Assembly (NCBI GenBank): GCA_049515915.1
Contig: JBEKTP010000001.1
Coordinates: forward strand, 6,855 to 70,854
Source of the DNA: Patescibacteria group bacterium
GTDB taxonomy: Bacteria; Patescibacteriota; UBA1384; UBA12157; JAENIV01
Reading direction: 5' to 3'
DNA: 64,000 nucleotides
The notes under the pieces: model-generated
What the model was told of the DNA's origin: nothing
What the model saw: only the letters and a program-made list of their open reading frames with translations
The model's database searches: none
Part shown: one piece after another, positions 14,681 to 46,610 of the stretch
Layout: each line of letters begins with the position of its first letter
Position numbering within the stretch: position 1 is the stretch's first letter
Program-made: the position numbers and the translations under genes

Positions 14681-14806
14681 AATTAAGTTTATATTACTCT
14701 AACTACAAATCAAAATCAAGATAGCGTCCGATGAGCGGTTTGACATTAACCTGTTTTATTATTACTATTAGAATAGACTTAATTACTAAGTGAGGGTTAT
14801 TTATTA

Positions 14807-18111: not shown

Positions 18112-18170
18112 ATCGGCCGACCCCGCCAGGGTAAATATTATAAGTATATTTGAGTAAATTTTCAGACCAT

Positions 18171-18383
18171 CTACTCGAAATCAACTTCTTGAAGTTGAGA
18201 TTGTCTAAGGATAGAACGAAAAGTGCCAAACGGTATTTCGCGACGATTAGCGGGGACAATAACGGTCAAAGTCGGTCGTCCATGTCTTCGATATTTAACA
18301 TGACTACCTTTTTGAGAGACATAAACAAATTCTTGTTTTTCGAGAACTTTAATAATGTGCTGAGAAGAATATAGTTTAGGCAT
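18171..18383 (-). CDS. hicA: HicA-family mRNA interferase toxin
   Basis: 70 aa, YcfA/HicA-like with the conserved KGSHVKY segment. It overlaps hicB by 8 nt. Confidence 0.7.
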   Translation of the reverse strand: MPKLYSSQHIIKVLEKQEFVYVSQKGSHVKYRRHGRPTLTVIVPANRREIPFGTFRSILRQSQLQEVDFE

Positions 18384-18597
18384 GCTGAAATTGATGCTTG
18401 ACTATCGAAAGATTTTCAATTTTAACAATTTTGGTGGGTTTGTGATCTTCAAAATAGAGTTCTAAGGCTTCATTAAGATTATTCAAAGCCTCTTTTTTGG
18501 TTTTACCAAAACTGGAAACTTCAACATTCAAGCATTGAGCAACATAAAATTTGCCTTCCTTCCAGACCAAGTTTTGTAACTGATAAGAGTTGTTCAT
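18376..18597 (-). CDS. hicB: HicB-family antitoxin (UPF0150-like)
   Basis: 73 aa with a HicB N-terminal-type fold sequence, directly upstream of and overlapping hicA. Confidence 0.6.
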   Translation of the reverse strand: MNNSYQLQNLVWKEGKFYVAQCLNVEVSSFGKTKKEALNNLNEALELYFEDHKPTKIVKIENLSIVKHQFQHA

Positions 18598-18673
18598 ATC
18601 TAATCCTTAATTAAAATATAGACAAATAAAAACTAAAAGTCAAACCGACGAGAATGCTTAATGACCAGAATAA

Positions 18674-20245
18674 CTACATCTTTTCCGGTGCAGAGACACC
18701 CATGAGATCCAAGGTTTTTTTGAGAACTATTTGAGTCGCTTTGATTAATTCAAGTCTCGCCGAAGTGAGATTTTCATCGTCGGAGATGACTTTGCAATGT
18801 TCGTAAAAATTATGGAATTTATTGGCTAGCCCAATCGCATAAAACGGCAAGCGCTGAACTTGATAATCTTCAGCTGTTTCGATCACCACATCGGGCAATT
18901 TGACCAACTCTTTAATCAGCGACAGCTCCGCCGGGTCTTTGATTAAATCCAAATCACTTTTTGATCTTTGATCTTTAATTTTTGATTTCGCGAGGATACT
19001 ATGGATTCTGGCGTGGGCATACTGAATATAATAGACCGGATTTTTTTCCGAACGTTCTTTGGCCAGATCCAAATCAAAATCCATATGCGTGTCAAGTGAC
19101 CTTTCTAAAAAGAAAAAACGTGTGACGTCGGCCCCGACTTCATCAATCAGCTCGTCAAGCGTGACATAAGTGCCGGCCCGTTTGGACATTTTAACTTCTT
19201 GACCTTTTGACATCAATCGCACCAGCTGGGCGATTAAAATTTGAAAGTTAACGCCGGCTTTTAATTCTTCTTCCAAAATTTGGACGCCGGCTTTCATCCG
19301 ACCAATGTAGCCGTGATGATCCGCCCCCCAAATGTCAATTAAAGTATTGTAACCGCGTTTTATTTTAAGATAATGGTAAGCCAAATCGGCCGTAAGATAG
19401 GTATATTCGCCTTTTGAGGTCACCAAAACTCGATCTTTATCGTCAGAAAACTTGGTCGTCTTAAGCCACTGGGCGCCCTCTTGACGATAAATCAAATCAT
19501 TTTTGGTCAAGAGGCCCATCACTTCTTCAACCGGACCTTGAAAGAGGTGGCTTTCCGAAGACCAATGATCAAATTTAATCCCCATTTTTTGAATGGTTTT
19601 TTTAATCGATTCTTCCACCAATATCGCTGCCGCTTCTTGCCCGGCCATCATTGGCTCTTTCGAGGATATTTTCGGGGCGATTTCATCGATATAGGCGCCT
19701 TTATAAACTGCTTCCGCGTCTTTTAAAACCGAATGTCCAAGGGCCAAAATCTGAGCGCCGCGATCGTTAATATAGTACTCGCGCTCAACATTTGCGCCGA
19801 AAGCTTCCAAAACATTGGCCAAAACGTCACCAGTATATCCCCCGCGGCCATTGCCGAGCGTCAACGGACCAGTCGGATTGGCCGAAATAAATTCGAGATT
19901 GACTTTTAAATCTTGACCTAAATCAGAATGACCGTAGCTTTCCCCCGCGTTAATAATCTCGGAAATTTTTTGTTGTAAATAGGGGAGTGATAATTTGAAA
20001 TTGATAAACCCTGGCCCGGCGACACTGGCCTCTTCGATAACCTCATCTTTTTCTATCCTATTTATAATATTATGGGCGACATCCTGCGGGCTTTCCCCTA
20101 TTCCCTTGGCCAAAATCATGGCCGCATTGGTCGAATAATCACCAAATTTTTCGTCGGCCGCTTCAATATTAAAATCCGGTATCTCCACCTTTGGATAGAC
20201 CAACTTCACGGCCTCGATAATTTTTTCCCTTATCAGATCTTTCAT
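18674..20245 (-). CDS. argS: arginine--tRNA ligase
   Basis: 523 aa class I aaRS with a HIGH-region variant and KMSKR (KMSKRAGTY). It has a DALR anticodon-binding-type C-terminus. Confidence 0.9.
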   Translation of the reverse strand: MKDLIREKIIEAVKLVYPKVEIPDFNIEAADEKFGDYSTNAAMILAKGIGESPQDVAHNIINRIEKDEVIEEASVAGPGFINFKLSLPYLQQKISEIINAGESYGHSDLGQDLKVNLEFISANPTGPLTLGNGRGGYTGDVLANVLEAFGANVEREYYINDRGAQILALGHSVLKDAEAVYKGAYIDEIAPKISSKEPMMAGQEAAAILVEESIKKTIQKMGIKFDHWSSESHLFQGPVEEVMGLLTKNDLIYRQEGAQWLKTTKFSDDKDRVLVTSKGEYTYLTADLAYHYLKIKRGYNTLIDIWGADHHGYIGRMKAGVQILEEELKAGVNFQILIAQLVRLMSKGQEVKMSKRAGTYVTLDELIDEVGADVTRFFFLERSLDTHMDFDLDLAKERSEKNPVYYIQYAHARIHSILAKSKIKDQRSKSDLDLIKDPAELSLIKELVKLPDVVIETAEDYQVQRLPFYAIGLANKFHNFYEHCKVISDDENLTSARLELIKATQIVLKKTLDLMGVSAPEKM

Positions 20246-21426
20246 TTTTTTATCTTGGCAAACTTTCGGCCGCCTTTAATTACCAGGCCGGTTTTTATTT
20301 CGATATTTTGAAACGGATCAGAAACTTTTTTATCATTAATCTCAATCGCATTTTGCTCAATTAACCGTTTGGCTTCCGATCTCGATTGTTTAAAGGCCGC
20401 CGCCACAAGATCAATCGCTTTTAACTCATCTTCCGTGATGACCACTGCCGGCATTTTGGCCGGCTGTTCTTTATTGACAAACACTCTTTCAAATTCTTTC
20501 TGGGCTGTGACCGCTTCTTTTTCGGAATGATACAGCTTGACTATTTCAAAAGCTAAACGGGCTTTTTCTTTTCGGGGATCGAACGGTTCCGGAACTTGTT
20601 TCTTAAACCTTTTTGACATGTCGTCAACCTGATTATTGGGAACATCAGTCAACAGCCGAAAATATTTGACGATTAAATCATCGGGGATAGACATCACTTT
20701 CCCAAACATTTGATCAGGTTCTTCCAAGATGCCAATATAATTTCCGACACTTTTCGACATTTTTTGAACCCCATCCGTCCCCTCCAAAAGAGAGAGCATC
20801 ATGACATCTTGAGACGGCTGGCCAAAAGATTTTTGGACTTTTCGGCCCATTAAAAGATTAAATTTCTGGTCGGTGCCGCCGAGCTCAAGATCGGCTTTGA
20901 CACAGACCGAATCATATCCTTGCAAGAGGGGGTACATGGTTTCTAACATATTAATATCCCGATTCTCGGAAAGGCGTTTTTGAAAATCATCTCGCTTCAA
21001 AACCTGTTGAAGAGTGACTTTTGAGCTCAAATCAAACAAAAAAAGTGTGTCTTTTTGGTCATACCATTCACGGTTATAACGCACTTCGGTTTTTTTCAAA
21101 TCCAAAATTTTGCCCACTTGAGCTAAATAAGTCCCCATGTTTTTCTTGACTTCTTCACGGGAAAGGACTTTTCGGGCATCCTGACGCGCTGAGGGATCAC
21201 CAATGGTGGCCGTAAAATCCCCCATAATTAAAACGACCTGATGGCCTAAATCTTGAAACTGTTTTAATTTTCTTAAAGGCACGGTGTGGCCCAAGTGAAG
21301 ATCGGCGGCCGTCGGATCAATGCCAAATTTGAGGCGTAATTTTTGACCGTTTTTTAACTTCTTTTCAAGCGATTCCCGCACAATAATTTCTTCAACTCCC
21401 CTATTGAGCAATTCGTCAATATTCAT
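20242..21426 (-). CDS. tyrS: tyrosine--tRNA ligase
   Basis: 394 aa with HIGH (DLHLGH) and KMSKS motifs and a C-terminal S4 domain. Confidence 0.9.
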   Translation of the reverse strand: MNIDELLNRGVEEIIVRESLEKKLKNGQKLRLKFGIDPTAADLHLGHTVPLRKLKQFQDLGHQVVLIMGDFTATIGDPSARQDARKVLSREEVKKNMGTYLAQVGKILDLKKTEVRYNREWYDQKDTLFLFDLSSKVTLQQVLKRDDFQKRLSENRDINMLETMYPLLQGYDSVCVKADLELGGTDQKFNLLMGRKVQKSFGQPSQDVMMLSLLEGTDGVQKMSKSVGNYIGILEEPDQMFGKVMSIPDDLIVKYFRLLTDVPNNQVDDMSKRFKKQVPEPFDPRKEKARLAFEIVKLYHSEKEAVTAQKEFERVFVNKEQPAKMPAVVITEDELKAIDLVAAAFKQSRSEAKRLIEQNAIEINDKKVSDPFQNIEIKTGLVIKGGRKFAKIKK

Positions 21427-21556
21427 TTGGCTCCTTTTCAGATTGTTATCACTTTCATTTTATCGTAAAACCTGATAATATGTAAAGGTGAAAACCAAAG
21501 GAAAGGGAAATAATTATAACGGCCGAAGATAAAAAGACCGTCACCTTGCTAAAAAT

Positions 21557-24355
21557 ATGAATTTTAAGAAAATATTTCCATTAAGTAACCCCTTAAAAAA
21601 AGTCCCCAAATTTCCGACCTCAAGATTTCGAAAGATCAACTGGAAGAGAATAAAAACCTGGATCCTCCGTCTGGGCCTCGGCTTCCTTCTTTTAATGTTG
21701 GCGCTTTTTCTTTGGTTTGCGAAGGATTTACCGACGCCGGGTCATATTACCAATCTTCAGTCGGCCGCGGCCACTCAAATTTTCGATCGAAACGGCAATG
21801 AACTTTATACAATCCACGGCAATGTCAAACGCATCATGGTCGGTAATAACGACATCCCCACGAACGTGAAAGAAGCAACTTTGACCGCCGAGGACCGGAG
21901 CTTTTATCACGACTACGGGATTAATTTTAAAGGTGTTCTGCGCGCCGCTTACGACGATATTTTTCATGGCAGCGGCGGCTTGGTCGGCGGTTCGTCGATT
22001 ACCCAACAATATGTGAAAAATGCCCTTTTGACTTCCCAAAAAACTTTCACGCGAAAAATTCAGGAAGCCATTTTGGCCATCGAAATTGAAACGATGTATT
22101 CGAAGCCGGATATTTTAACCATGTATCTCAACGAGATTCCCTATGGCTCTTACGCTTACGGCATCGAGGCAGCGTCGGAAACTTTCTTTGGCAAAAAAGC
22201 CAACCAACTGGATTTAGCCGAAGCGGCCACCTTAGCGGCGCTCCCTCAAGCCCCGACTTATTATTCGCCCTATGGGATCCATCCTGACGACCGCTTGGCA
22301 CGGGTGGATTGGATCTTAGATGGTATGGTCACCCAGGGCTATATCACTCAAGATCAGGCCACCGCCGCTAAAGCCGAAGCCAAAAATATCAAATTTGTGC
22401 CTCAAAACGAACAAATCGCCGCCCCCCACTTTGTCATGTATGTCAAAGATTTACTGGCCGAAAAATACGGCGAGCAAATGCTCGAGGAAGGAGGCTTAAA
22501 AGTCTATACCACCCTCGATAGCACTGATCAACAAGCGGCTGAGCAAGCCGTCGCCGACGCCAAACTTTCAAGCGTTAACGCCACCAACGCTTCGCTTGTT
22601 TCGATTGATCCCAAAACCGGGCAGATTCTAGCCATGGTCGGCTCACGGGACTTTTTCAATCAAGCCATCGACGGTCAAGTCAACGTCGCTATTTCGCCGC
22701 GCCAGCCGGGCTCTTCGTTTAAGCCGATTATGTACGCAACCGCCTTTAAAAAACAATTTAGTCCCGGCTATACCCTTTGGGATGTAACAACCAATTTTGG
22801 TAATTACACGCCGCAAGATTACGACGGTAAAACCCGCGGCCCAGTGACGATTCGAACGGCCTTGGCCGGTTCGCTCAATATCCCGGCCGTTAAAACGCTC
22901 GCTTTAACCGGCATCAATAATGTCCTCGATCAAGCTCACAGTATGGGCATTACGACTCTCAACGATCCTTCGCGTTACGGTCTCTCGCTTGTCCTGGGCG
23001 GCGGCGAGGTGACCTTACTCGATGAGACGACCGCTTACGGCGTCTTTGCCAATAACGGCGTTCTGGCGCCGACGACCCCTATTTTGAAAGTCGTCAATCT
23101 CAAAGGAAAAGTGCTCGAACAATATAAAGCCAATCCCAAAAATGTCTTAGACCCGAGCATTTCCTACGAAATTTCCAACATTTTGTCCGACAACAATGCC
23201 CGTTCCTTCGAGTTCGGCAGTCATTCCGCTTTATATTTTTCCGACCGACCGGTCGCCGCCAAAACCGGCACGACTCAAAATAACCGCGATGCTTGGACGG
23301 TCGGCTACACGCCCTCGATCACGGCCGGCGTTTGGGTCGGTAACGACGATAATACCCCGATGTCAGCCGGCGGCGCTGGGGCCATGGCGGCCGCCCCCAT
23401 TTGGCACGAGTACATGGCCAAAGTTCTCAGCGGCACACCCGTCGAGCAGTTTAACCAGCCCAGTAACGTTAAAAGCTGCACCCTTGACCGCTACACCAAC
23501 CAATTACCCAGCGGCGGTCAAACCACGACCGACATCTGCACGCCGTGGCAAATTCCGACGGAACGCGCCCAAAGTGTCGGCACTTTAAGAATTGATAAAT
23601 ACACCGGCAAAATTGCCACCGATGACTGCCCCGATCAGTTTACGGAAACGGAAACTTTCCAGGATATTCATTCCGAACAACCCAACAACCCCGCTTGGGA
23701 AAGCCCCGTCCGAGCCTGGCTGGCGGCGGCCGGGATCTTAACCGTTGCCCCGCCGTCGGGCGATAAAACTTGCGCCGCCACGACCGACCATACAACCATT
23801 AGCCTTTCCGCCCCGGCCGCCGGGACGCAAGTGAGTGGCACAATCAACATCAACGCCTCGGTTAATTCCAATGTTTCCATTGCTAAAGTTGATTTTCTGC
23901 TTGATGGCGTTAATATTGGCACCGCCACGAATAGTCCTTATCAAATAAGCTACGATACGAGCGGCCTGGCTTCAGGGGCTCACAGCCTCAGCGCAATTGC
24001 CACCGATCAATACGGCCTGACGACCACCGCTGATTCCGTCGGCATTATTATCGCCGGCGGCCCGCCGGGTGACGTCACCAATGTTTTGCTGACCCCTGGC
24101 ACCAATACCATTGCCGCTTCCTGGAAAAACCCCAGTGATGCTGACTTGGCTTCGGTCAATATCTACATTTCCACCTCTTCCGGCACCCTCGGCAATCTTT
24201 ACGGCAATTTTAGTGCTTTACCTTCCTCAAACGGGGCCGAATCAATTAGTAGTCTCAAAAATAAAACCACCTACTATGTCACTCTAAGACCGGTGGATTC
24301 ATTGGGTAACGAAAACAATAGCACGACTCAATACTCGACCACCACTTTGCCGTAA
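21557..24355 (+). CDS. mrcA: bifunctional penicillin-binding protein 1A (GT51 transglycosylase + transpeptidase) with C-terminal Ig/FN3-like repeats
   Basis: 932 aa. The GT51 motif (EDRSFYHDYG) and the transpeptidase SxxK/SxN/KTGT motifs (SSFKP, KTGTT) are present. A C-terminal ~250 aa Thr/Ser-rich beta-rich extension is also present. Confidence 0.85.
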   Translation: MNFKKIFPLSNPLKKVPKFPTSRFRKINWKRIKTWILRLGLGFLLLMLALFLWFAKDLPTPGHITNLQSAAATQIFDRNGNELYTIHGNVKRIMVGNNDIPTNVKEATLTAEDRSFYHDYGINFKGVLRAAYDDIFHGSGGLVGGSSITQQYVKNALLTSQKTFTRKIQEAILAIEIETMYSKPDILTMYLNEIPYGSYAYGIEAASETFFGKKANQLDLAEAATLAALPQAPTYYSPYGIHPDDRLARVDWILDGMVTQGYITQDQATAAKAEAKNIKFVPQNEQIAAPHFVMYVKDLLAEKYGEQMLEEGGLKVYTTLDSTDQQAAEQAVADAKLSSVNATNASLVSIDPKTGQILAMVGSRDFFNQAIDGQVNVAISPRQPGSSFKPIMYATAFKKQFSPGYTLWDVTTNFGNYTPQDYDGKTRGPVTIRTALAGSLNIPAVKTLALTGINNVLDQAHSMGITTLNDPSRYGLSLVLGGGEVTLLDETTAYGVFANNGVLAPTTPILKVVNLKGKVLEQYKANPKNVLDPSISYEISNILSDNNARSFEFGSHSALYFSDRPVAAKTGTTQNNRDAWTVGYTPSITAGVWVGNDDNTPMSAGGAGAMAAAPIWHEYMAKVLSGTPVEQFNQPSNVKSCTLDRYTNQLPSGGQTTTDICTPWQIPTERAQSVGTLRIDKYTGKIATDDCPDQFTETETFQDIHSEQPNNPAWESPVRAWLAAAGILTVAPPSGDKTCAATTDHTTISLSAPAAGTQVSGTININASVNSNVSIAKVDFLLDGVNIGTATNSPYQISYDTSGLASGAHSLSAIATDQYGLTTTADSVGIIIAGGPPGDVTNVLLTPGTNTIAASWKNPSDADLASVNIYISTSSGTLGNLYGNFSALPSSNGAESISSLKNKTTYYVTLRPVDSLGNENNSTTQYSTTTLP

Positions 24356-24363
24356 ATAGTTCT

Positions 24364-25299
24364 CTATTTTTTCTTGGGTTGAACAAAGATCATTTTACCG
24401 GCCACCGTTTGGAAGATGCGCACCACCTCGCAATCCACTTCTTTACCGACCAAACTCTGGCCGCCCTCAACGACAATCATTGTACCGTCGGAAAGATATC
24501 CAACGCCCTGGCCCAGCTCTTTACCTTTTTGAATTACCTTGACCCGAATTTCTTCGCCGGGAATTAAAGTCGGTTTAAGACTTTCGGCCAGTTCGTTCAC
24601 ATTTAAAACATCGACTTTTTGAATTTTAGCAACGCGGTTTAAATTATAGTCGGCCGTAATGATTTTGGCATTGCGGCGTTTTGCCGTCTTAATTAACTTT
24701 TGATCAACCGGTTCGCGGGAAGACTCAAGATCATCAATGATTTCAATCTCTAATTTGGCATTACTTTGCATTTTATCCAAAGACTCCAACCCTCGTCGGC
24801 CCTTGGTGCGGCGGATCGGATCTTCGGAATCGGCAACATTTTGCAGTTCAGCCAGGACAAATTGGGGAATTAAAATATTACCTAAGATAAACCCGCTTTG
24901 AGCGATTTGTTCAAGCCGACCATCAATGAGTGAAGAGGTGTCCACGACAATACTGCAACCGGGCGCATTGTTATGTCCCATAATCCGGTCCATAATCCGT
25001 TTGAAAAAAACTGAGGCGGGCTGCCCTTGGGCAATAAACAAATCTAAAACGGCGACCGTGACAAAAACTTCCACAATCATCGGCACCCAGGTACCGTAGG
25101 CGCCCGGCAATCTCGCAAGCGGCGTGGCGGCCAGCGAGCCGATTAATAAGCCCAAAATTAAACCGATTAAACCCATGAAAAAGTAAGGAAATGAAATTTT
25201 TAGCAATCTTCTGGTTAAAAAAAGCAAAATGATCGCCACGCCTAAAATGATGAAAAAAATGGCTAAATTGGTCGCCTCCACATTGGAAAAATTAAACAT
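24364..25299 (-). CDS. membrane-anchored PIN and TRAM domain protein (YacL-like)
   Basis: 311 aa with N-terminal TM helices, a PIN segment (IVVDTSSLIDGRL) and a C-terminal TRAM-like domain. Confidence 0.7.
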   Translation of the reverse strand: MFNFSNVEATNLAIFFIILGVAIILLFLTRRLLKISFPYFFMGLIGLILGLLIGSLAATPLARLPGAYGTWVPMIVEVFVTVAVLDLFIAQGQPASVFFKRIMDRIMGHNNAPGCSIVVDTSSLIDGRLEQIAQSGFILGNILIPQFVLAELQNVADSEDPIRRTKGRRGLESLDKMQSNAKLEIEIIDDLESSREPVDQKLIKTAKRRNAKIITADYNLNRVAKIQKVDVLNVNELAESLKPTLIPGEEIRVKVIQKGKELGQGVGYLSDGTMIVVEGGQSLVGKEVDCEVVRIFQTVAGKMIFVQPKKK

Positions 25300-25311
25300 G
25301 ATTACTCCTTT

Positions 25312-26619
25312 TTAATTCAAATTTTTTTGAATTGAATCAACTAATAATTTTTGATTGATAAATTTTGAAAAACCAAGACGTTTAGCTTCAGTAATACGCT
25401 TATTTTCCATCGAAACTTTGCGAATTTCGCCCGAGAGTCCCACTTCGCCAAAAGCACAAACGCTTGGACTGATTGTTTTACCTTTATAAGCCGAGGCGAT
25501 GGCTAAAGCGACCGCGAGATCGACCGCCGGTTCTTTAACCTTAATCCCCCCCACGATATTGATAAAAATATCCTGATTACTCAAATTTAAGCCCGCTCTT
25601 TTTTGCAAAACGGCCACCAGTAATTGCAAGCGGTTAAGATCGTAGCCGGAAGATTTACGCTGAGGGAAACCAAAAGGCGTCGTCGAAGTTAAGGCTTGAA
25701 CTTCCACTAATAAGGCTCTGGTCCCTTCCATCGTCGCGGTTACGACATTGCCCGAAATATTGGGCGACCGTTCTTCTAAAAATAGTTTTGAAGGATTAGC
25801 CACTTCTTTCAGCCCTTTTTCGGTCATTTCAAAAACGCCGATCTCGTCGGTGGCCCCAAAACGATTTTTCGTCCCCCGTAAAATCCGATGATTATGATAG
25901 CGTTCACCTTCCAAATATAAAACGACATCGACTAAATGTTCCAAGGTTCGGGGCCCAGCAACCGTGCCATCTTTGGTGACATGACCGACTAAGACGACGG
26001 AGGTGGGCGTCGTTTTAGCTAATTGCTGAAGTCTCAAAGCGCATTCCCTCACTTGAACGAGCGAGCCGGGCGTCGAGGGAAAATCATCCGAATAAATGGT
26101 CTGAATGGAATCAATAATAACGAGGTCGGGCTTGACCCTTTCGACCGCCGCCAGAACACCCGCCAAGGAAATATCGGCCAAAACCATAATTTTTTTATTT
26201 TTCAGTCCCATGCGGTCGAAGCGCAATTTTATTTGACCGGGAGACTCTTCGCCGGAGACATAAAGAACATTTGAAAGTTCAGCGGCCACTTCTAAAAGTA
26301 AAGTTGATTTACCGATCCCCGGCTCGCCGCCCAGGAGAATAATCGAACCCGGGACAATGCCGCCTTTATTAGCTGAACCGCCCAAGACCCGATCAAACTC
26401 CCCGATCTTAGTGGAGATGCGCTGAAAATTGGAAGACTTAATTTTATCAATTTCAATTGCTTGGGATGAGGGAATATCTCTTCGTCCTTCGTGTTTAGAG
26501 CTTAATTTAAATTCTTTTAAAGTGTTCCACTGGCCACAATTGTCGCATTTTCCTTGCCACTTTAAATATTCTTCGCCGCAATCTGAACAAACAAAAACCG
26601 TCTGATAATTACTTTTCAT
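25312..26619 (-). CDS. radA: DNA repair protein RadA/Sms
   Basis: 435 aa with an N-terminal C4 zinc finger (CSDCGEEY...CDNCGQW), Walker A GEPGIGKST, the KNRFG motif and a Lon-like C-terminal domain. Confidence 0.9.
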   Translation of the reverse strand: MKSNYQTVFVCSDCGEEYLKWQGKCDNCGQWNTLKEFKLSSKHEGRRDIPSSQAIEIDKIKSSNFQRISTKIGEFDRVLGGSANKGGIVPGSIILLGGEPGIGKSTLLLEVAAELSNVLYVSGEESPGQIKLRFDRMGLKNKKIMVLADISLAGVLAAVERVKPDLVIIDSIQTIYSDDFPSTPGSLVQVRECALRLQQLAKTTPTSVVLVGHVTKDGTVAGPRTLEHLVDVVLYLEGERYHNHRILRGTKNRFGATDEIGVFEMTEKGLKEVANPSKLFLEERSPNISGNVVTATMEGTRALLVEVQALTSTTPFGFPQRKSSGYDLNRLQLLVAVLQKRAGLNLSNQDIFINIVGGIKVKEPAVDLAVALAIASAYKGKTISPSVCAFGEVGLSGEIRKVSMENKRITEAKRLGFSKFINQKLLVDSIQKNLN

Positions 26620-26697
26620 GTGGTTAGATTATACCACAACTTTTAGATAAAAACTCGTCATTTTCCCCGAAATCACCTCCGGCAATTGACAAAAATA

Positions 26698-26725
26698 TTG
26701 ACAGTGCTAACTTCATCGCTATAAT
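26698..26725 (+). promoter_or_regulatory. consensus sigma70-type promoter (TTGACA-N16-TATAAT) driving the high-GC gene
   Basis: -35 TTGACA is at 26698-26703 and -10 TATAAT at 26720-26725. A second TTGACA lies 12 nt upstream. The RBS GGGAGGACAAG sits before the ATG at 26773. Confidence 0.55.
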
Positions 26726-26772
26726 TATATAAGATTGCCTGCGGCTTAATTCCAGCTCTCCGGGAGGACAAG

Positions 26773-27519
26773 ATGACAGCGTTGCCATGCCGTAACCGAA
26801 CTTCAAGCGAGGTCAGAACAGGTATGTTGGAAGCCGACTGCCTCTTCGTCCCACTGGGTCTACCGACGATCAGCACGCCGGCCGTCATGGCGGTAGCAGT
26901 CAAGACGCTTTTTGCCCATGACTTCATCCCGCGCGTCGATTTGGCCCTCAAGACCGAGGTCCTCCAGGCGGCGATCAAAGCCTCTAGACGCACAGACACT
27001 CAGACCGCTCGCCCCGTCATCGCGGCTTTCAACAACATCAACTTCGCCCACAACCAGCTCGCGGTCTGTTTGGGCTTCGACATCATCGAATACGAGGGGG
27101 CGGAGCCGGACGAGCTCGCACCTTTCGCCGCGCTCTGCGCCGAAGCCGGCGTCTACGGACTGGTTCACTTCAATGATCCTGGCGTCCTCGAACTCATGTT
27201 GGCGTCAATCGAGGATCCCAACCTCCTCGCCGCTCACCTCGACTATAACGAATGCCGCCTGAAGGACTATGCCGTCGCCTATCGCCGCGTCGGCCTCGAG
27301 CCTAAAAGCCAAATCGCCATCGTCAGCTGCCCGATTACCTGGGGGACCAGTTGGCAGCGGATTATTCGCCACCAATGCGGCTTTGAGCTGATCCCGGGAC
27401 TCGTCTTGACCGATGTCTTCGCCAAGATCAACCCCAACGACACCGAAGCGATCAAGCACGCCATCGCCAATGCGCGTGAACACTTTACGCCCTTCACTGG
27501 GCACGAACCCGTCGGATGA
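26773..27519 (+). CDS. high-GC hypothetical protein (248 aa), likely horizontally acquired
   Basis: It is the longest ORF in a ~60% GC island (26.75-27.56 kb) inside a ~40% GC genome. It has a perfect promoter and RBS upstream and a terminator downstream. No family was recognised. Confidence 0.5.
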   Translation: MTALPCRNRTSSEVRTGMLEADCLFVPLGLPTISTPAVMAVAVKTLFAHDFIPRVDLALKTEVLQAAIKASRRTDTQTARPVIAAFNNINFAHNQLAVCLGFDIIEYEGAEPDELAPFAALCAEAGVYGLVHFNDPGVLELMLASIEDPNLLAAHLDYNECRLKDYAVAYRRVGLEPKSQIAIVSCPITWGTSWQRIIRHQCGFELIPGLVLTDVFAKINPNDTEAIKHAIANAREHFTPFTGHEPVG

Positions 27520-27533
27520 GATCCGTCAACGAT

Positions 27534-27574
27534 CAGGGCAGTGGGCTCATGCCCCCTGCCCTGCTACTTTATTT
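27534..27574 (+). terminator. rho-independent terminator
   Basis: A GC hairpin CAGGGCAGTGGGCTCATGCCCCCTGCCCTG is followed by TTTATTTGG. Confidence 0.55.
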
Positions 27575-28501
27575 GGAGTTCAAAAGAAGACTTAAAATTG
27601 CCATACGGACATAGAGGCCGTTTTTTATTTGTTCTCGAAAATATAATGATCTTTTGTCCTTATCAACCGCCGGTTCAATCTCGTCAATGCGCGGCAAAGG
27701 ATGCATCAAAATCAGATCTTTTCTGGTTTTTTTCATGATGTTTTCATCAATCACATACCGCCCCTTATATTTTTGATATTGGGCCTGGCTTTTAAATCGC
27801 TCTTTTTGAATTCGCGTCATATATAAAATGTCGAGCTGATTGATATTTTTAATAAGATTTTCAGTTTCGATTATTTTAATCTTATTCTGACCGGTCCGGC
27901 CAATTTCCGCCGGCATTCTAAGCGCTTTAGGTGAAATCAAATAAAAATTTTTTAAACCGATTTTTATAAGCAATTTTAATAATGAATGGACCGTCCGACC
28001 GTTTTTTAAGTCCCCGACCAGCCCGACTTTAACTTCTCTTAGATTTTTAAAATGATTTAAAATCGTCATCGCATCAAGTAACGCTTGAGTTGGATGCTCG
28101 CCCGCCCCATCACCGGCGTTAATAATAGGCACTTTGCTCTTGGCCGCCGCTCTCTCCGCCGCCCCAATTACCGGGTGGCGGACAATTAAAATATCGGCAA
28201 GCTGTGAAAAAGTTTTAATCGTATCTTCAAATGTCTCCCCTTTCGCCACCGAGGAAAAATTCATCCCGGGCATCGCAATGACCTGGCCGCCCAAACGTTG
28301 CATGGCCGCCAGAAAGGAAGCAAAAGTCCGGCTCGATGGTTCGTAAAAAAGGGCCGCCGCAATTTTACCTTTCAGGCGCGGTGTGATTTTAGAAGTTTGA
28401 AACTGCCGCCGCATTTCGGCGGCTTTTTTAAAAATTAATTTTATATCCGCGTCGGAGAGCTGATCGATGGAGATTAGATTTCGAAAAGATAATTTATTCA
28501 T
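27569..28501 (-). CDS. pyrB: aspartate carbamoyltransferase catalytic subunit
   Basis: 310 aa with the carbamoyl-phosphate motif SSRTFASF (STRTR-type), HPTQ, and HPLP (MHPLPRID), which is diagnostic for ATCase over OTCase. Confidence 0.85.
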   Translation of the reverse strand: MNKLSFRNLISIDQLSDADIKLIFKKAAEMRRQFQTSKITPRLKGKIAAALFYEPSSRTFASFLAAMQRLGGQVIAMPGMNFSSVAKGETFEDTIKTFSQLADILIVRHPVIGAAERAAAKSKVPIINAGDGAGEHPTQALLDAMTILNHFKNLREVKVGLVGDLKNGRTVHSLLKLLIKIGLKNFYLISPKALRMPAEIGRTGQNKIKIIETENLIKNINQLDILYMTRIQKERFKSQAQYQKYKGRYVIDENIMKKTRKDLILMHPLPRIDEIEPAVDKDKRSLYFREQIKNGLYVRMAILSLLLNSK

Positions 28502-30197
28502 TTTTTATATCTACAATCTTCAATTGAGGTTTTGACTCCCCGCCCCAAGTATCCTCATCGATCGTGAAGGCCAAATCTATTACTTGATTTTTTAAGTGAT
28601 CGGAAAAAGCGGCCAGATCAAACGCGATCGCTCTAAGATCTCCGACCTTAAAACTTAAATGCTTATCTTCTCTGCCGACCGTTCTCACATCGGTCGCTTT
28701 AATATTTTCTAAAGTAAAGACGGGTCGCGGATTGCCCAGACCAAACGGTTCGAGCTTTTTCAGAGACTGAAGTAAGCGATTGGTAATTTCTTTCTCCGAA
28801 ATTTTAGCCTCAATTTTTATTTTCGGGACTAAATCCTTATCTTTAAGTTTGACCGCCGCAATTTGAAGCAACTGGTCATAAAGGCTTTCCATTTTCGAAA
28901 GTTCGAAAGTCAGACCGGCCGCTTTGGCGTGACCGCCAAAAGAGGTCAACAATTGATTCGATTCTTCGAGCGCTTCAATAATGTTATAGCCATCAATTGA
29001 TCTGGCCGAACCGCGAAAATCCTTTTCTCTTTTTTCACAAACAATGACCGGGCGGGCATATTCCTCCATCAATTTGCCAGCCACCAGGCCAATAATCCCG
29101 TGCGGCCAATCCCGTCCAGAAACGATAATAACTTTTTTTTGATCCAAGCCATCTTGAATAACTTTCTCTTTGGCTGATTTTAAGACGCGATCCAATTCGC
29201 TTTGACGAAGACGATTAATTTGATCAAGTTTTGCCGCGAGCGCCGTTGCCTCTTTGGGGTCTTTGGAGATTAATAAATAAAAACTTTGATTGGCGTGAGC
29301 CATTCGGCCCGGCGCGTTTAATCTTGGCCCGATTTGAAAACCAACCGTGTAAGTATCGATTTTTTCCGGCTCGATACTCGCGGCTTGATAAAGTTTCAAA
29401 AGTCCGATTCTTTTGGTTTTTCTCAAAACGATTAAACCGAATTTGGCAAAAATCCGATTTTCGTCAACCAGCGGCACGATATCGCAGATGGTTGAAATGG
29501 CGACCAGATCTAAGAGCCATTTTAAATAGGGAATATTAATTTTATTAAATTTCTTTGATAAAGCTTGGGCCAGCTTAAAGGCCACGCCACAGCCAGAAAG
29601 CTCGCAAAAAGGATACTTGTCCCCTTTTTGTTTAGGATTAACGACAATACAATCGGGAATTTTTTCGCCTGGTTCGTGGTGATCCAAAATAATCGTTTCG
29701 ATGCCATTTTCTTTAGCATATCCAACTTGATCGAAACTCCGAATCCCCAGATCAACCGTTACCATTAAAGTGACTTTTGCTTTGGCGAATATGTCAATCC
29801 CCTCTTTGTTTAAGCCGTAACCTTCGCTTCGCGAAGGAATATAAGGCACGACTTTCAGCTCAAGTTTAGAAAAGAGATCATAAAGTAACGCCAACCCCGG
29901 AATACCGTCAGCATCGTAATCGCCGAAAATCCCGACAATTTCCTTTTGCAAGACTGCCTGTTCGATTCTTGCGACCGCTTCTTTCATGCCTTTCATCAAT
30001 AAAGGATCGTGCAAACCTTTTTCAAAATCGGGATTTAAAAAAGAGTCCCAATCCTCCTTTTCGATATGACGATTAATAAGCAGCTGCTCAATAACACTTT
30101 CAGATTTTTTAGGTAAAACAACCCAACGTTTAGTCAAATTTTTCCTCGATGATTTCTTGCCCTGAACCCATTGTGGTTTAGGGTTAGTTCGATTCAA
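28494..30197 (-). CDS. recJ: single-stranded-DNA-specific exonuclease RecJ
   Basis: 567 aa with DHH (GDYDADGI) and DHHA1 domains and a C-terminal OB-like region. Confidence 0.85.
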   Translation of the reverse strand: MNRTNPKPQWVQGKKSSRKNLTKRWVVLPKKSESVIEQLLINRHIEKEDWDSFLNPDFEKGLHDPLLMKGMKEAVARIEQAVLQKEIVGIFGDYDADGIPGLALLYDLFSKLELKVVPYIPSRSEGYGLNKEGIDIFAKAKVTLMVTVDLGIRSFDQVGYAKENGIETIILDHHEPGEKIPDCIVVNPKQKGDKYPFCELSGCGVAFKLAQALSKKFNKINIPYLKWLLDLVAISTICDIVPLVDENRIFAKFGLIVLRKTKRIGLLKLYQAASIEPEKIDTYTVGFQIGPRLNAPGRMAHANQSFYLLISKDPKEATALAAKLDQINRLRQSELDRVLKSAKEKVIQDGLDQKKVIIVSGRDWPHGIIGLVAGKLMEEYARPVIVCEKREKDFRGSARSIDGYNIIEALEESNQLLTSFGGHAKAAGLTFELSKMESLYDQLLQIAAVKLKDKDLVPKIKIEAKISEKEITNRLLQSLKKLEPFGLGNPRPVFTLENIKATDVRTVGREDKHLSFKVGDLRAIAFDLAAFSDHLKNQVIDLAFTIDEDTWGGESKPQLKIVDIKNE

Positions 30198-30211
30198 TTA
30201 TATAACAAATA

Positions 30212-32218
30212 CTAATAAAGCAGGACAGCCCCACCGCAATATCTAAAAATGATTAAAACACCGGCGATCAAAAACGGAACAATAAAAGCAGCGTATGTTA
30301 CGTAAAATACATATCTGGACGGTTTTTTAAAGTTTAGCTCAAGCAGCAATAGCGGTCCGGCGAAAAAATAATAAAAGTAAATAAAATATAAATATCTAAA
30401 AAGGGGTGATATCACAAAAATAAACCAAAAAGGCAATTGGGCGAGAATAAAAAAACTTGAACGCGCTGAAAGCGGCACCCACCGATACAAAAGAAAAATG
30501 ATAGTTAAAAATATAACCGGGTAGAGCAAATTAAAAATTGCCGGTCTTATGGGACTGATGAAAGCGATAATTTTTTGTTGGATCGTAAAAAATTTTTTGA
30601 CCGGGTTAAATTTAATATATAATCCAGTACCACCGTTCCAATCCCATAAATAGCTTTGAATGCCGGGATTACTCCAGTAATGGTTGACCCACGTCAACGC
30701 CTCGTTGGGATAGTTAGAATCCAGCATGGTTGTAAAAAGCCGAGTTCTTTCGGCGAGAAAAAGAGGCAGGTTTTGCCAGATTCTTTGATAAAACATTTTA
30801 TTAAATTGGTTAATATCTGATTGGTTTAATTGGAGGTTGAGCGTGCCAGAAAGGGGCGCCCCGTTATTTGGATCGTAATATTCTTCAATATTTTTTAATC
30901 CGATGACCTTATCAACAATGGCGCGATCCCCCGTCGGATTGTCAGAAATATATTTATTGGATAGAATCAGGGCGGCCATCGGATGAAATTTCCAGGCGAG
31001 ATTAGATTCCACTTTTGACCAACGGGGAATATTAAAAACTGCCGGAATAACAAATTTAAAAAATATCAAAAATATTAACGAGACGATGGCAAAAGTTATA
31101 AATGTTTTTTTACTCATCAGGCGACCCCACACAATTACCAATGGCAAAACTAAAAGATAGAGGTAACCGTTGTGACGAATAAGCACCACCAAAATAAAAA
31201 GCAACGATAGGATAAATATTTTTTTAAAACTGAAATTCGTTTTGATGCCTAATTTTTGACGATAACCCAGATAAAAAAGATAAAAACCCCAGAAGACGAC
31301 TAAAAGACTGAAGGGAATGTCTTTCCAGATTGTGATGTTTAGCAAGCCGATGGGGATCGAGAAAATAAAAAGTAAGTAAAATGGCAAAATAAGATAAAAT
31401 TTAATCCCGTTTTTGTAGACGAAATAGAATATATAGCTTGCGAGAGCCGAAGTGGCTAAAATTTGAAAAACAGAAACCGCCGCGAAGGAATCATGAAACT
31501 GCATCAAGGCCATCAGATACAACGTGCTCAAATACGGAAAGGCGTTCGTGATCTCGAAAGTTTTTGTTTGGATTAATTGATTAAAGGAATCGCTGGTGGC
31601 TGCGCCGGGCCATTGCCCGAGTAACCAAAATGAAAAAACTGCGCAAGCAATAAAAAACATTGCCCAAAAAACCCAACGCTGATTTTCAAAAAAAATATAT
31701 TTAATAAAATTTTTCCAATTCAAGCCAAGTCGAGATTTAAAGACAAGAAGTTCGTAAGCTGGCCATCCTATAAGGATGGCCAGCATTATCTGAACTAATA
31801 ATAAAAGAATTCTCGGACTTTCTAATTTTCGCGGATCAATTTGAGCGGAGGCGACATTAGATTTAATTTCGAACGGAATTGAGGTTCCCGACTTCAAAAT
31901 GACTATTTTCCCAGATTCAAGATTAACTTTTTGACCATTACTGATAACCTTAACGCTTTTTAAGGGAAGTTGAGGCAATAAAAAATCTACATCGAGAGTA
32001 CTTTCTTTAATCGAAATAGATCTTTTTTCAATTTCGTTGTATCCCCTCCCGGCATCCCAACTAATTTGAAACGTAGTTCCCGCCGGAAAATTACCGTCAA
32101 GATTTATATAAGAGGGCCCAAAGTAATGGTTTCTTAAAAAGAAAAATAAAAAGAAGCCGACGAAAAACACAAAAGCAATTAATAAGTTTTTCTTTGAACT
32201 TCTAAAAAATGACTTCAT
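30212..32218 (-). CDS. large polytopic membrane protein (>=12 TM) with N-terminal extracytoplasmic domain
   Basis: 668 aa. Hydrophobicity shows one N-terminal TM, a ~130-aa soluble domain, then many TM helices. It is possibly glycosyltransferase/polymerase-like, but no motif was confirmed. Confidence 0.5.
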   Translation of the reverse strand: MKSFFRSSKKNLLIAFVFFVGFFLFFFLRNHYFGPSYINLDGNFPAGTTFQISWDAGRGYNEIEKRSISIKESTLDVDFLLPQLPLKSVKVISNGQKVNLESGKIVILKSGTSIPFEIKSNVASAQIDPRKLESPRILLLLVQIMLAILIGWPAYELLVFKSRLGLNWKNFIKYIFFENQRWVFWAMFFIACAVFSFWLLGQWPGAATSDSFNQLIQTKTFEITNAFPYLSTLYLMALMQFHDSFAAVSVFQILATSALASYIFYFVYKNGIKFYLILPFYLLFIFSIPIGLLNITIWKDIPFSLLVVFWGFYLFYLGYRQKLGIKTNFSFKKIFILSLLFILVVLIRHNGYLYLLVLPLVIVWGRLMSKKTFITFAIVSLIFLIFFKFVIPAVFNIPRWSKVESNLAWKFHPMAALILSNKYISDNPTGDRAIVDKVIGLKNIEEYYDPNNGAPLSGTLNLQLNQSDINQFNKMFYQRIWQNLPLFLAERTRLFTTMLDSNYPNEALTWVNHYWSNPGIQSYLWDWNGGTGLYIKFNPVKKFFTIQQKIIAFISPIRPAIFNLLYPVIFLTIIFLLYRWVPLSARSSFFILAQLPFWFIFVISPLFRYLYFIYFYYFFAGPLLLLELNFKKPSRYVFYVTYAAFIVPFLIAGVLIIFRYCGGAVLLY

Positions 32219-32250
32219 CTTACATTAAGCGTATCAAAAAATCACTTTCC

Positions 32251-33015
32251 TTATTTATAAAAAACTTTGCCGGCGACGCGGAGATCAATATATTGAGTCG
32301 CCTCGTTGGCATGATCTTTTAAAAATGCCGTCAGTTCAGACATTTGGTCATCAACGGATCGAGTGATGTCAAACTTAATTAAGATGCCGCTTTTTAAGGC
32401 CGCGTCGACTTGGAAAGTTGTTTCGTTAATTTCAAAATGATCAACCGGCAGGCCATTTGCGTCGAGCTTCGATTTTACTGAGGAAACAAATTTAATAAAG
32501 TTATCGGTGACGACTTGCTGTTCCGATTTAACCAGTAAACTTTTATTATCTTTGACGACAATTAAACCGCCCGGGTCTGACACTTCAATATAGGCCGTGC
32601 CCAAAGCATCAACTAAATAAAATTGCGCGCCAGTTTGCCAGACTAAGACCGGTGAACGCTGACTGAAGGTTACTTTAATCGCATCAGGGATGCCTCTGGC
32701 GACATTAATACTGACCAGTTCCGGATATTTTGCCAATAAATTATCGCGAATGGCGTTTGGCTGAAAAGTAAAAATATTCTGACCTTTATACTGGGCCAAA
32801 TACTGAGTCACTTGCGGCGGCATATTTTGATCAACAATGATATTTTTAATTTGAAAATAGGGGGACTGAAATATGAAATAATAAATTCCACCTAATAAAA
32901 TCAATATCAGAATTGGTTTGTAAAGTTTAACCCGACGCTTTTTTTTCGGCGGCTCGAAGGGAAGATTGAAAACTTTCGGGTTCCGATACGCATTTTGATT
33001 AGGAGTTCGATTCAA
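32251..33015 (-). CDS. ftsQ: cell division protein FtsQ/DivIB (POTRA domain)
   Basis: 254 aa with a basic N-terminus, a single TM and POTRA-like beta-rich periplasmic part. It is positioned after murB in the dcw cluster. Confidence 0.7.
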   Translation of the reverse strand: MNRTPNQNAYRNPKVFNLPFEPPKKKRRVKLYKPILILILLGGIYYFIFQSPYFQIKNIIVDQNMPPQVTQYLAQYKGQNIFTFQPNAIRDNLLAKYPELVSINVARGIPDAIKVTFSQRSPVLVWQTGAQFYLVDALGTAYIEVSDPGGLIVVKDNKSLLVKSEQQVVTDNFIKFVSSVKSKLDANGLPVDHFEINETTFQVDAALKSGILIKFDITRSVDDQMSELTAFLKDHANEATQYIDLRVAGKVFYK

Positions 33016-33045
33016 ACCTCTCCTTGCTGAAAAAAATTTACTTTA

Positions 33046-34038
33046 CTACCATTGACCGATATATTCGATTTCTTCTTCTAAAGTGATGCCGTATTTTTGG
33101 CGGACGCGTTCGCGCATTTCTTCAATGAGTGAACGAATTTCGGTCGCTTTGGCCCCATTTTTACTTAACACCCAATTGGCATGTTTGGGGGAAACTTCAA
33201 CGGTCGAATATTTCAGTCGTTTAGCGTCCGCTTGATCAAGCATAAACCCGGCCGTTCTTTCCGGAGGAAGCTCCGGCATGCCTTTGGTGCCCGATCCGAT
33301 GACGTTAATTAAAGAGTCAGGAATGGGATTTTTAAAGATACTGCCCGTCGTCAAACCGACGGGTTGGGTGCGGCGACGATATTCTTGATATTCTTTCAGA
33401 TGTCTCATTAGCTTTTCTTTTTGAATCCGAGAAAACTGAAATCTGACCGTTAAAATAACCGGTTTCGTTTTCGATTTGAGGTTTTTTAATTTCGTTTGAC
33501 GATAGCCAAAATTCATCCAGGCCCCATCGACTTGAACGACTTTAGGCAAATTATCTTTGGGGTCAATTTTTAAAAGAGTTAGGCTTTTGACATAACTCCC
33601 GATGGCCGAACCGTGCGCCCCCGCATTGCCGTAAACCGCCCCGCCCACTGTCCCGGGCACGCCGTATAAAAATTCTAATCCCGAAAGATCATGCGAAACT
33701 GATTCCATAATAAGTTTCGTTAAGATGACGCCACTATCGGCAATGACTTGGCTTTTTTCGATCATGAAAGCCACCCGAGCCGCCATGTTTTTAATCACTA
33801 AACCAGGAAAACCATAATCGGAAAAAAGAATATTCGAACCATTACCAAGAATAAAATAAGACAACTTTTGGTTGACGGCCACCTTGACGGCTTTAATTAA
33901 ATCTTCAACCGATTTAGCTTCATAAAAATAGTCAGCGACGCCGCCCACTTTAAAAGTGTTAAAATCTCTCATCACGACTTGTTCTTTCGCCCCCGGCAAA
34001 AGATCGGTAATTTTCTTAGCCATTTTTAAGCACCTCAT
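33046..34038 (-). CDS. murB: UDP-N-acetylenolpyruvoylglucosamine reductase
   Basis: 330 aa with an FAD-binding PCMH-type domain (FKVGGVADYF, GNGSN). An alternative start MAKKIT lies at 34023. Confidence 0.85.
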   Translation of the reverse strand: MRCLKMAKKITDLLPGAKEQVVMRDFNTFKVGGVADYFYEAKSVEDLIKAVKVAVNQKLSYFILGNGSNILFSDYGFPGLVIKNMAARVAFMIEKSQVIADSGVILTKLIMESVSHDLSGLEFLYGVPGTVGGAVYGNAGAHGSAIGSYVKSLTLLKIDPKDNLPKVVQVDGAWMNFGYRQTKLKNLKSKTKPVILTVRFQFSRIQKEKLMRHLKEYQEYRRRTQPVGLTTGSIFKNPIPDSLINVIGSGTKGMPELPPERTAGFMLDQADAKRLKYSTVEVSPKHANWVLSKNGAKATEIRSLIEEMRERVRQKYGITLEEEIEYIGQW

Positions 34039-35416: not shown

Positions 35417-35479
35417 TTAAAAATTTGTTATTTTAAAATTTGTCATTTAATCTTCTCACATTTTAACCTAAATTGACCG

Positions 35480-40221: not shown

Positions 40222-40225
40222 AATA

Positions 40226-40972: not shown

Positions 40973-41090
40973 TACGTTTATTGTATCAAAATGACCGCTT
41001 ATATGGAAGAAGAAATCTTGCTGAGAGTAAAATCCAAGCTTTAAACCCAGTCACTAAGCACTGTTGGATAACCAATTGATAATTCCTTGA

Positions 41091-42116: not shown

Positions 42117-42119
42117 AAA

Positions 42120-43304: not shown

Positions 43305-43350
43305 TGGCTTTGTTTATTCTACCACTAAACCGGTTGTTTGTCGAGGGAAC

Positions 43351-45045: not shown

Positions 45046-45097
45046 TTTAAAAAATAATTCCCAATTTTTTAAGATTGAAAGTGAATTTTTTCAGAGA

Positions 45098-45403: not shown

Positions 45404-45430
45404 TTCCCCTCCAAAGACTTAGATGATTAA

Positions 45431-46306: not shown

Positions 46307-46339
46307 TTTTTCCTTTGCGGGCGGCTAGTCTTTAAGGGC

Positions 46340-46540: not shown

Positions 46541-46610
46541 TACAAGAAAGTTTATTCGAGATGGAAAATGCGAGCTGTTAGCGCTCTCTCATTTCCCAGG
46601 CCGAATTTTC

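Follow-up and report, generated by a model that had tools for sequence, protein, structure and literature searches.

Between radA and pyrB, in a 64,000-nucleotide stretch of a Patescibacteria contig (hereafter the window, meaning the whole of the DNA analyzed here), lies a single GC-rich open reading frame of 248 codons, ORF248. The frame is part of a compact and self-contained expression cassette (26686..27576) that is composed of a promoter, a short leader, the coding sequence and a terminator. More than 20 independent contigs, drawn from JGI, ENA, Logan and NCBI, have the same gene arrangement, and it is thus no assembly chimera. The original prediction had described the locus as a recent horizontal acquisition from a donor of high GC content. 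Much of its description holds: the island of about 60% GC is there (ORF248 has a GC content of 0.594 compared to a window mean of 0.42), and Pfam matches to both flanking genes confirm that it is located between radA and pyrB. The age and the origin that were assigned to it are not supported. As a whole, the locus is best explained as an old inserted cassette that encodes an orphan barrel-type protein and that has a maintained, gene-specific bias towards GC-ending codons, a reading that we regard as rather probable.

The expression signals of ORF248 are exceptionally strong and they are conserved. The promoter hexamers are a TTGACA box at 26698-26703 (box 2) and a TATAAT box at 26720-26725, separated by a spacer of 16 nt. 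Perfect TTGACA-N16-18-TATAAT sites occur twice in the 64 kb, while 0.06 are expected from shuffled sequences. The claim that this is the best promoter in the window is right in so far as the consensus is perfect, but the rank is shared with a second perfect site at 59808..59781 on the minus strand. Both hexamers are perfectly kept in two related genomes, namely L001, with a 17-nt spacer of different sequence, and L092, with a 16-nt spacer of unrelated sequence. A further TTGACA box (box 1) is found in the window and L001 and is absent from L092; its distance of 28 nt to the -10 box means that it is probably not a functional -35 element. Transcription is predicted to start near 26732. The leader folds more weakly than shuffled controls (z +2.1), leaving the ribosome-binding site open, and its Shine-Dalgarno sequence GGGAGGA (26762-26768) places GGAGG 5 nt before the ATG. 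Thus, the two TTGACA boxes, the TATAAT box and the GGGAGGA motif are all present as predicted. L092 has the Shine-Dalgarno sequence AAGGAGGA at the identical 5-nt spacing, and this common GGAGG-N5-ATG arrangement favors the upstream ATG, and hence a protein of 248 amino acids, over the start at Met18 of the NCBI record.

The 3' end of the cassette is equally well defined. The terminator hairpin (dG -27.3 kcal/mol, z -4.2) is built from a 13-nt inverted repeat with 92% complementarity, and directly 3' of it follows CUACUUUAUUU, which overlaps the stop codon (27569-27571) and the last codons of the convergent pyrB. A GC-rich hairpin followed by a U-tract past the stop codon is the arrangement of a Rho-independent terminator, and the overlap of this terminator with the pyrB stop had been described correctly. 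The corresponding hairpin in L092 has a folding energy of -27.5 kcal/mol with other stem bases, and the structure is also kept in L001. The start of the 3' untranslated region, GATCCG..CAGGGCAG, is common to the window and L092. The terminator would halt a strong transcript and thereby spare the convergent pyrB-recJ genes, which overlap each other by 8 nt (recJ 28494..30197), from antisense read-through. Judged from these signals, strong constitutive expression of ORF248 is plausible.

Table 1. Coordinates of the ORF248 cassette and of its two flanking genes in the window.
Feature	Coordinates	Strand	Basis
Upstream TTGACA box 1	26686-26691	+	read from the sequence
Consensus sigma-70-type promoter TTGACA-N16-TATAAT	26698..26725	+	12/12 match
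5' leader, 41 nt, with Shine-Dalgarno sequence	26732..26772	+	sequence, folding
ORF248 coding sequence, 248 aa	26773..27519	+	list of open reading frames
Intrinsic terminator	27534..27576	+	hairpin 27534-27563 and U-rich tract 27564-27576
radA, divergent from the cassette	25312..26619	-	Pfam Zn_ribbon_LapB, AAA_25, ChlI
pyrB (aspartate carbamoyltransferase), convergent with the cassette	27569..28501	-	Pfam OTCace_N, OTCace

ORF248 is a real protein-coding gene. The GC contents of its first, second and third codon positions (0.61, 0.43 and 0.75) give a strong three-base periodicity. We compared three orthologs, namely the window copy, that of L001, a strain with about 95% nucleotide identity (88% identity of the ORF248 proteins), and that of L092 (44-48% amino acid identity). 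The ORF248 frame is the only one that is open in all three, with 2-22 stops in the other five frames, and all indels in the three-way alignment comprise whole codons. Differences to L092 are distributed over the codon positions as 87, 79 and 126, a third-position excess (p=0.0015). The ratio of nonsynonymous to synonymous differences per site (pN/pS) is 0.44 against L001 (p=0.001) and 0.63 against L092 (p=2e-4). The gene is under purifying selection and evolves about twice as fast as its neighbors. One could argue that the reading frame is an artefact and that the island is a structured non-coding RNA gene, similar to other GC-rich units of the window. At 47190-48360 and 59400-59810 there are indeed aperiodic GC-rich stretches that have strong promoters and terminators, and folding of the whole ORF248 transcript gives z scores of -2.1 (window) and -5.0 (L092). 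However, this folding is not consistently exceptional across the orthologs, and the excess folding energy of the window transcript comes essentially from the terminator hairpin. An Rfam scan of the ORF248 region returned no match at E<=1. With the periodicity, the frame shared by three orthologs, the in-frame indels, pN/pS values below 1 and a conserved Shine-Dalgarno sequence and start codon, an RNA artefact is hardly conceivable, and the worry expressed in the original prediction that the frame might not be conserved in homologs is dispelled.

The cassette is old. In L092 the ORF248 ortholog occupies this very site with unchanged orientation. It has a GC content of 0.61 and a GC content at third codon positions (GC3) of 0.77, compared to a GC content of 0.39-0.43 in the flanks, and the RadA, PyrB, RecJ and PIN-TRAM proteins of L092 are 70-87% identical to those of the window. 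An ortholog of equal GC content at the same position in distant relatives is what the original prediction had itself named as evidence against a recent acquisition. The synonymous divergence (dS) of ORF248 between the window and L001 is 0.17, the same as that of the neighboring genes (0.14-0.26), and ORF248 was thus inherited together with them. The comparison of the radA-pyrB junction in relatives, as had been suggested, revealed empty sites: L094 and L095 (PyrB 61-63% and RadA 75% identical to the window) have the order recJ-pyrB-(75-77 bp)-radA-PIN/TRAM without any reading frame in the spacer. In L012 (RadA 59%) recJ overlaps radA directly and neither pyrB nor ORF248 is present. Thus, the cassette of about 870 bp is an insertion, or it has been lost in those lineages; under gain and loss alike it predates the split of the window and L092 lineages.

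The nearest named relatives of PyrB belong to Levy-, Roizman- and Gottesmanbacteria, and therefore the organism is Microgenomates-like. The cassette would have entered the pyrB-radA spacer in an ancestor of a small Microgenomates-like subclade of the Patescibacteria, head-to-head with radA and tail-to-tail with pyrB, and it would thereafter have been inherited with the pyrB/recJ flank. The flanking genes themselves show two further features. In this clade pyrB is a single gene between recJ and radA, while the more distant Microgenomates relatives L096 and L097 keep a full pyrimidine cluster with two adjacent genes of the ornithine carbamoyltransferase (OTCase) fold, pyrC, pyrD, pyrF, phosphoribosyltransferase genes and prs. 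On the radA strand, TGgTATAAT (hexamer 26633..26628, within 26617..26636) is found 8 nt before the ATG and there is no Shine-Dalgarno sequence, which suggests that the radA mRNA may be leaderless. Similar -10-like hexamers (TATACT and TATAAT/ATTATA) lie 6-10 nt before the radA start in L092, L094 and L095.

These data bear directly on the idea of a recent gain from a high-GC donor, in which the GC content would be donor composition that is not yet ameliorated. The GC content of 0.59 compared to 0.42, the 12.9% alanine and 2.8% lysine that are typical of high-GC proteomes, the relatives with empty sites and the remnant of an insertion sequence (IS) that adjoins the gene in L001 would all fit such a scenario. 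However, L092, with flank proteins that are 70-87% identical, holds the ortholog of equal GC content at the same site, and the dS of ORF248 against L001 is that of its neighbors. A donor was searched for in 1.84 billion cluster representatives and in a collection of 5.8 billion clusters, and among the roughly 15 billion proteins there is no homolog beyond the clade; tblastn against plasmids gave no significant match to ORF248. The cassette boundaries lack bracketing direct or inverted repeats and a target-site duplication, and hence the mobility signatures of a recent island are missing. The IS remnant of L001 (9186..9952, 767 bp, with a 109-aa fragment of an IS1595-family transposase) is secondary: it is found in this one strain, where it separates the -10 box from the ribosome-binding site and is bordered by a 5-bp TTATA duplication (window 26725..26729), and the ORF248 ortholog next to it is intact. 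We therefore consider a recent transfer very unlikely. What stands of the proposed horizontal acquisition is the insertion relative to L094, L095 and L012; that it was recent and that it came from a high-GC donor is not supported.

The junction of radA and pyrB is also a place of recombination. In outgroup-rooted neighbor-joining trees with 200 bootstraps, RadA of L092 groups with L094 and L095 (196/200), while the window and L092 fall together in the trees of RecJ (200/200) and PyrB (189/200). L094 and L095 are 97% identical in RadA and 80% in PyrB. The flank phylogenies thus conflict across the cassette, which places a recombination breakpoint here among related uncultivated lineages; presence of ORF248 tracks the pyrB/recJ side of the locus, and the exchanged flank may be either side of the breakpoint. 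A recombination hotspot could in principle keep a locus GC rich by GC-biased gene conversion, and both this breakpoint and the general GC direction of the residual codon bias described below would be in line with it. However, the adjoining radA and pyrB genes take part in the same exchanges and have an ordinary GC3 of 0.43-0.44, and the GC step matches the cassette boundaries without the gradient of a conversion tract. With ordinary GC3 in genes that recombine equally, biased gene conversion becomes highly improbable.

The compositional anomaly itself can be dissected. Over 200-nt segments the GC content is 0.54-0.63 between 26700 and 27600, compared to 0.33-0.47 in the flanks, and the GC3 of ORF248, about 0.74-0.75, is the highest among the approximately 57 reading frames of the window that have 100 aa or more. 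The protein is rich in alanine, proline, arginine and valine and poor in lysine, serine and isoleucine (Ala 12.9, Pro 6.5, Arg 5.2 and Lys 2.8%, compared to 7.7, 4.0, 3.9 and 7.9% in native proteins). Written with the codon usage of native minus-strand genes it would have a GC content of 0.494, and with that of native plus-strand genes a GC content of 0.530 and a GC3 of 0.56, while 0.594 and 0.743 are observed. About half of the GC excess is hence a matter of amino acid composition and of a strand effect that is common to native plus-strand genes. This strand asymmetry was determined over 14800..53500, where native plus-strand genes have C and T at 0.37 and 0.28 of third positions (C3 and T3), compared to 0.22 and 0.33 in minus-strand genes. 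Native genes prefer C at four-fold degenerate sites but T in two-fold families ending in a pyrimidine (NNY), a pattern for which mutation bias alone is insufficient. Beyond this, ORF248 prefers C over T in NNY families (55/72 versus 236/572 in native genes, p=1e-8) and G over A in the two-fold families ending in a purine (NNR; Lys, Glu and Gln; 17/29 versus 70/279, p=3e-4). The seemingly foreign GC content would thus have three parts: the amino acid composition, the C-rich third positions of the plus strand and a gene-specific preference for codons that end in G or C.

The third part appears to be maintained. At two-fold sites with identical residues, the window and L092 share the codon at a fraction of 0.70, compared to 0.61 if the codons were independent, and at four-fold sites at 0.51 compared to 0.38. 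Although synonymous sites are near random, GC-ending codons make up 0.70-0.77 of the two-fold sites in both orthologs, compared to 0.19-0.37 in five native genes in both genomes, and the GC content at four-fold sites (GC4) is 0.84 and 0.79. This argues for a bias that is gene-specific and maintained, and not for donor DNA that has yet to ameliorate. A more cautious version of the transfer scenario is an ancient gain from an unsampled high-GC donor with slow, unfinished neutral amelioration and no selection on composition. Amino acid composition and GC3 both point in the high-GC direction, the residual preference for C over T and for G over A resembles a compositional signature, and the saturation comparison comprises few sites (44 and 57) with wide confidence limits. 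However, the residual excess of codon identity is about 0.2, close to the 0.11-0.16 of the neighbors, so that synonymous sites are almost randomized, and yet both orthologs remain 0.34-0.40 above the native level of GC-ending codons. Back-extrapolation of neutral decay at the observed turnover, by our own arithmetic, leads to an ancestral GC-ending fraction above 1. The native GC4 has also drifted between the two genomes (0.60-0.74 versus 0.45-0.60), while that of ORF248 stayed high. Slow amelioration is therefore unlikely, although it deserves to be kept in mind.

A maintained bias could also be ordinary translational selection, in which a very highly expressed gene uses the optimal codons of the genome, here NNC over NNU. 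The consensus promoter, the consensus Shine-Dalgarno sequence and the open leader would be expected for such a gene, and NNC/(NNC+NNT) is 0.75 in the window (49/65) and 0.76 in L092. Sharp et al. are said to have reported in 2005 that the optimal codons of two-fold NNY families are usually those ending in C. However, the gene of ribosomal protein L33, which with its 59 codons is a weak test and the sole ribosomal-protein gene that we reached, has a GC3 of 0.33 and 2/11 NNC codons, and thus lacks the bias of ORF248. ClpB and ClpP have GC3 values of 0.25 and 0.42, and the raised G-ending codons for Lys, Glu and Gln are not predicted by translational selection. Translational selection is usually weak in slow growers that have a single rRNA operon, which we also count against it here. 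We regard this explanation as quite unlikely. A bias specific to C3, and with it translational selection, had been considered in the course of the analysis and was withdrawn, since native plus-strand genes share the C3 trend; the raised G-ending NNR codons and the absence of the bias from L33 speak against it as well. On codon usage and high expression in Patescibacteria, a full-text literature search returned nothing relevant. The leading candidate for the cause of the gene-specific bias is selection on the mRNA or the DNA of a very strongly transcribed gene; targets could be, for example, mRNA stability or, in a head-on gene with extremely strong transcription, the DNA itself.

ORF248 represents a new, narrowly distributed family of a lineage-restricted and probably cytoplasmic protein. 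The protein is acidic and has 27 kDa, an isoelectric point of 5.5 and a grand average of hydropathy (GRAVY) of 0.15, and by inspection it has neither a long hydrophobic segment nor a signal-like N-terminus. The earlier statement that it belongs to no recognizable family is borne out by scans of Pfam, NCBIfam, PHROGs, PADLOC and PDB sequences, which gave no significant match; with all three orthologs the first four remain silent even at E<=10, and a profile search of the PDB returned noise only (E 0.5-1.7), including indole-3-glycerol phosphate synthase (IGPS) at E of about 1. Word-indexed searches and exhaustive HMMER searches of the protein collections named above found three clusters, all from one Patescibacteria clade, so that the sequence family was previously unseen. 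One distant ortholog (P0003) came out of the exhaustive HMMER search only, and a profile search that included it found no further homologs. A DNA scan of JGI metagenomes found a single, identical locus, and tblastn over all fetched loci found no second copy of ORF248.

By eye, short hydrophobic strands and amphipathic helices alternate about eight times in the protein. AlphaFold2 (AF2), given the three-sequence alignment, produced one model with a predicted local distance difference test (pLDDT) of 65.5 and a predicted TM score (pTM) of 0.70, in which strands 24-28, 52-56, 83-85, 104-108, 128-133, 181-185 and 195-208 are interleaved with helices. Based on this model of moderate confidence, ORF248 probably resembles a (beta-alpha)8 triose-phosphate isomerase (TIM) barrel, and it would then most likely act as an enzyme or as a barrel protein that binds a small ligand. 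The invariant residues D56, D135, H155, D214, C23 and C122 may hint at acid-base or metal chemistry; H49 and H200 are conserved as well. The sole invariant lysine is K228, located in the predicted C-terminal helix 224-236, and there is no invariant lysine in a strand; the protein thus lacks the catalytic lysine of aldolase, orotidine monophosphate decarboxylase (OMPDC), IGPS, PdxS and TIM barrels. A local likeness to the 2-keto-3-deoxy-6-phosphogluconate/2-keto-4-hydroxyglutarate (KDPG/KHG) aldolase Eda was noticed by eye (VDLALKTE versus LEVTLRTE, and a common ELML). The E. coli Eda query used here is 100% identical to 1eua. KDPG/KHG aldolase (PF01081) was rejected: hhalign against an Eda alignment gave a probability of 0.1 and an E value of 0.53 over the same 16 columns, the Schiff-base lysine on strand beta-6 is missing, and Pfam is silent at E<=10 for the three members. 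OMP decarboxylase, IGPS, PdxS and triose-phosphate isomerase were likewise rejected, as a strand lysine (DxKxxD type) and Pfam or NCBIfam matches are lacking.

Several points weigh against the reading of ORF248 as an old, strongly expressed and selected barrel gene. ORF248 is 44-48% identical between the window and L092, compared to 70-87% for the neighbors, and its ratio of nonsynonymous to synonymous substitution rates (dN/dS) is 0.41, compared to 0.02-0.15, which one would not normally expect of a very highly expressed protein. In L001 the IS1595 remnant parts promoter and gene while the frame stays intact, so that a direct link of promoter and gene is not indispensable. We looked at this strain for relaxed selection after the insertion: amino acid changes between the window and L001, polarized with L092, number 7 versus 6 and give no sign of it, and a loss of GC at third positions in L001 (18 versus 10) looks by eye too small for significance. 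The saturation sample is small, with 44 two-fold and 57 four-fold sites. Loss in L094 and L095 may have occurred in place of a gain. Concerning the fold, one of five AF2 models folded, residues 185-209 are below a pLDDT of 50, and a two-sequence alignment gave a pLDDT of 35; AF2 may also force a barrel onto any sequence with a beta/alpha pattern. Finally, there are three orthologs, two of them close, which makes invariant residues weakly informative. In its most specific form, in which ORF248 founds a fast-evolving TIM-barrel-like family in one Patescibacteria subclade and gene-specific selection holds its synonymous sites GC rich, our proposal is accordingly a tentative one that we would not expect to hold in every part.

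The window contains other GC-rich elements. On the minus strand, about 1.15 kb (47190..48360) that separate mraZ from a class II aminoacyl-tRNA synthetase gene have a GC content of 0.53-0.61, lack codon periodicity and match nothing in Pfam or Rfam even at E<=1. With a TTGACA-N18-TATTAT promoter (48390..48361) and strong intrinsic terminators at 47833..47806 and 47210..47193, the region looks like two unannotated structured RNAs of about 500-600 nt each. The only other perfect TTGACA-N16-TATAAT promoter of the window, mentioned above, precedes the 23S rRNA by about 680 nt and heads a GC-rich and apparently untranslated stretch of about 350 nt (59400..59810, minus strand) with a GC hairpin at its end (about 59436..59412); a second promoter-like site lies between this stretch and the 23S rRNA. 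Rfam has no credible match to this stretch; the best is RNA-OUT with 26.6 bits compared to a gathering score of 41. The 23S rRNA gene (55378..59103, minus strand) extends over 3.7 kb and contains a group I intron (55564..55878) and AT-rich reading frames, including one of 163 aa (56505..56996). In the equivalent region of L099 (15386..17502), reading frames of 163 and 154 aa are annotated as LAGLIDADG homing endonucleases, and a further LAGLIDADG frame is found in a probable 16S region past the end of the window.

A second GC-rich gene, which the original prediction had paired with ORF248 as gene 1, lies at 4443..4763 on the plus strand. It encodes 106 aa, has a GC content of 0.58 and a GC3 of 0.62 and a strong GAAGGAGG ribosome-binding site, and is located within a type I restriction-modification island of low GC content (0.30-0.34); the gene is present on at least 23 contigs. 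Its protein has no Pfam match, is built from two tandem copies of a unit of about 45 aa (KTYAQRLAETQAMSTEEI.. / KTYSERYSETSSMSTSEI..) and is unrelated in sequence to ORF248.

If the most specific form of our proposal is true, a foreign-looking GC island in an AT-rich reduced genome need not mark a recent transfer and can be a stable feature under selection. Screens for horizontal gene transfer by composition would misdate ORF248, whose old GC anomaly has been maintained at a conserved position. If selection does keep a single gene GC rich in an AT-rich, slow-growing and symbiont-like bacterium, its nature is testable; mRNA stability, nuclease avoidance and transcription-replication conflict are possible types. 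In the Patescibacteria, or Candidate Phyla Radiation (CPR), most of the lineage-specific biology is unknown, and as a compact protein of no known family that is, going by its promoter and ribosome-binding site, probably strongly expressed, ORF248 is a candidate for characterization. The breakpoint at radA and pyrB bears on the exchange of DNA among uncultivated lineages. No long-standing problem is resolved by these findings.

Comparison with known systems places ORF248 between several categories. The ribulose-phosphate-binding and class I aldolase barrels (Eda, TrpC, OMP decarboxylase and PdxS) have no significant similarity to it, and unlike their Schiff-base or catalytic lysines its only invariant lysine sits in the last helix. 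With ORFan genes and genomic islets it shares a single-gene insertion between housekeeping genes that is absent from the site in relatives, the lack of homologs outside a narrow clade and an atypical GC content and codon usage. Unlike those islets, its composition is undecayed over a divergence that saturates synonymous sites, it has neither flanking mobility genes nor repeats, and its consensus host-type signals are conserved across lineages. According to the amelioration model that Lawrence and Ochman are said to have put forward in 1997, foreign GC3 reportedly approaches that of the host about as fast as synonymous substitutions accumulate. ORF248 violates this model, since both orthologs have a GC-ending fraction of 0.70-0.77 although the identity of their codons is near random. 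Genes of the ribosomal protein and EF-Tu class differ from it in that its bias is not found in L33 and includes G-ending codons, and in that its protein evolves fast; however, in common with this class ORF248 has consensus -35 and -10 boxes, a consensus Shine-Dalgarno sequence, a strong terminator behind the gene, a leader without structure and synonymous codons that are strongly biased.

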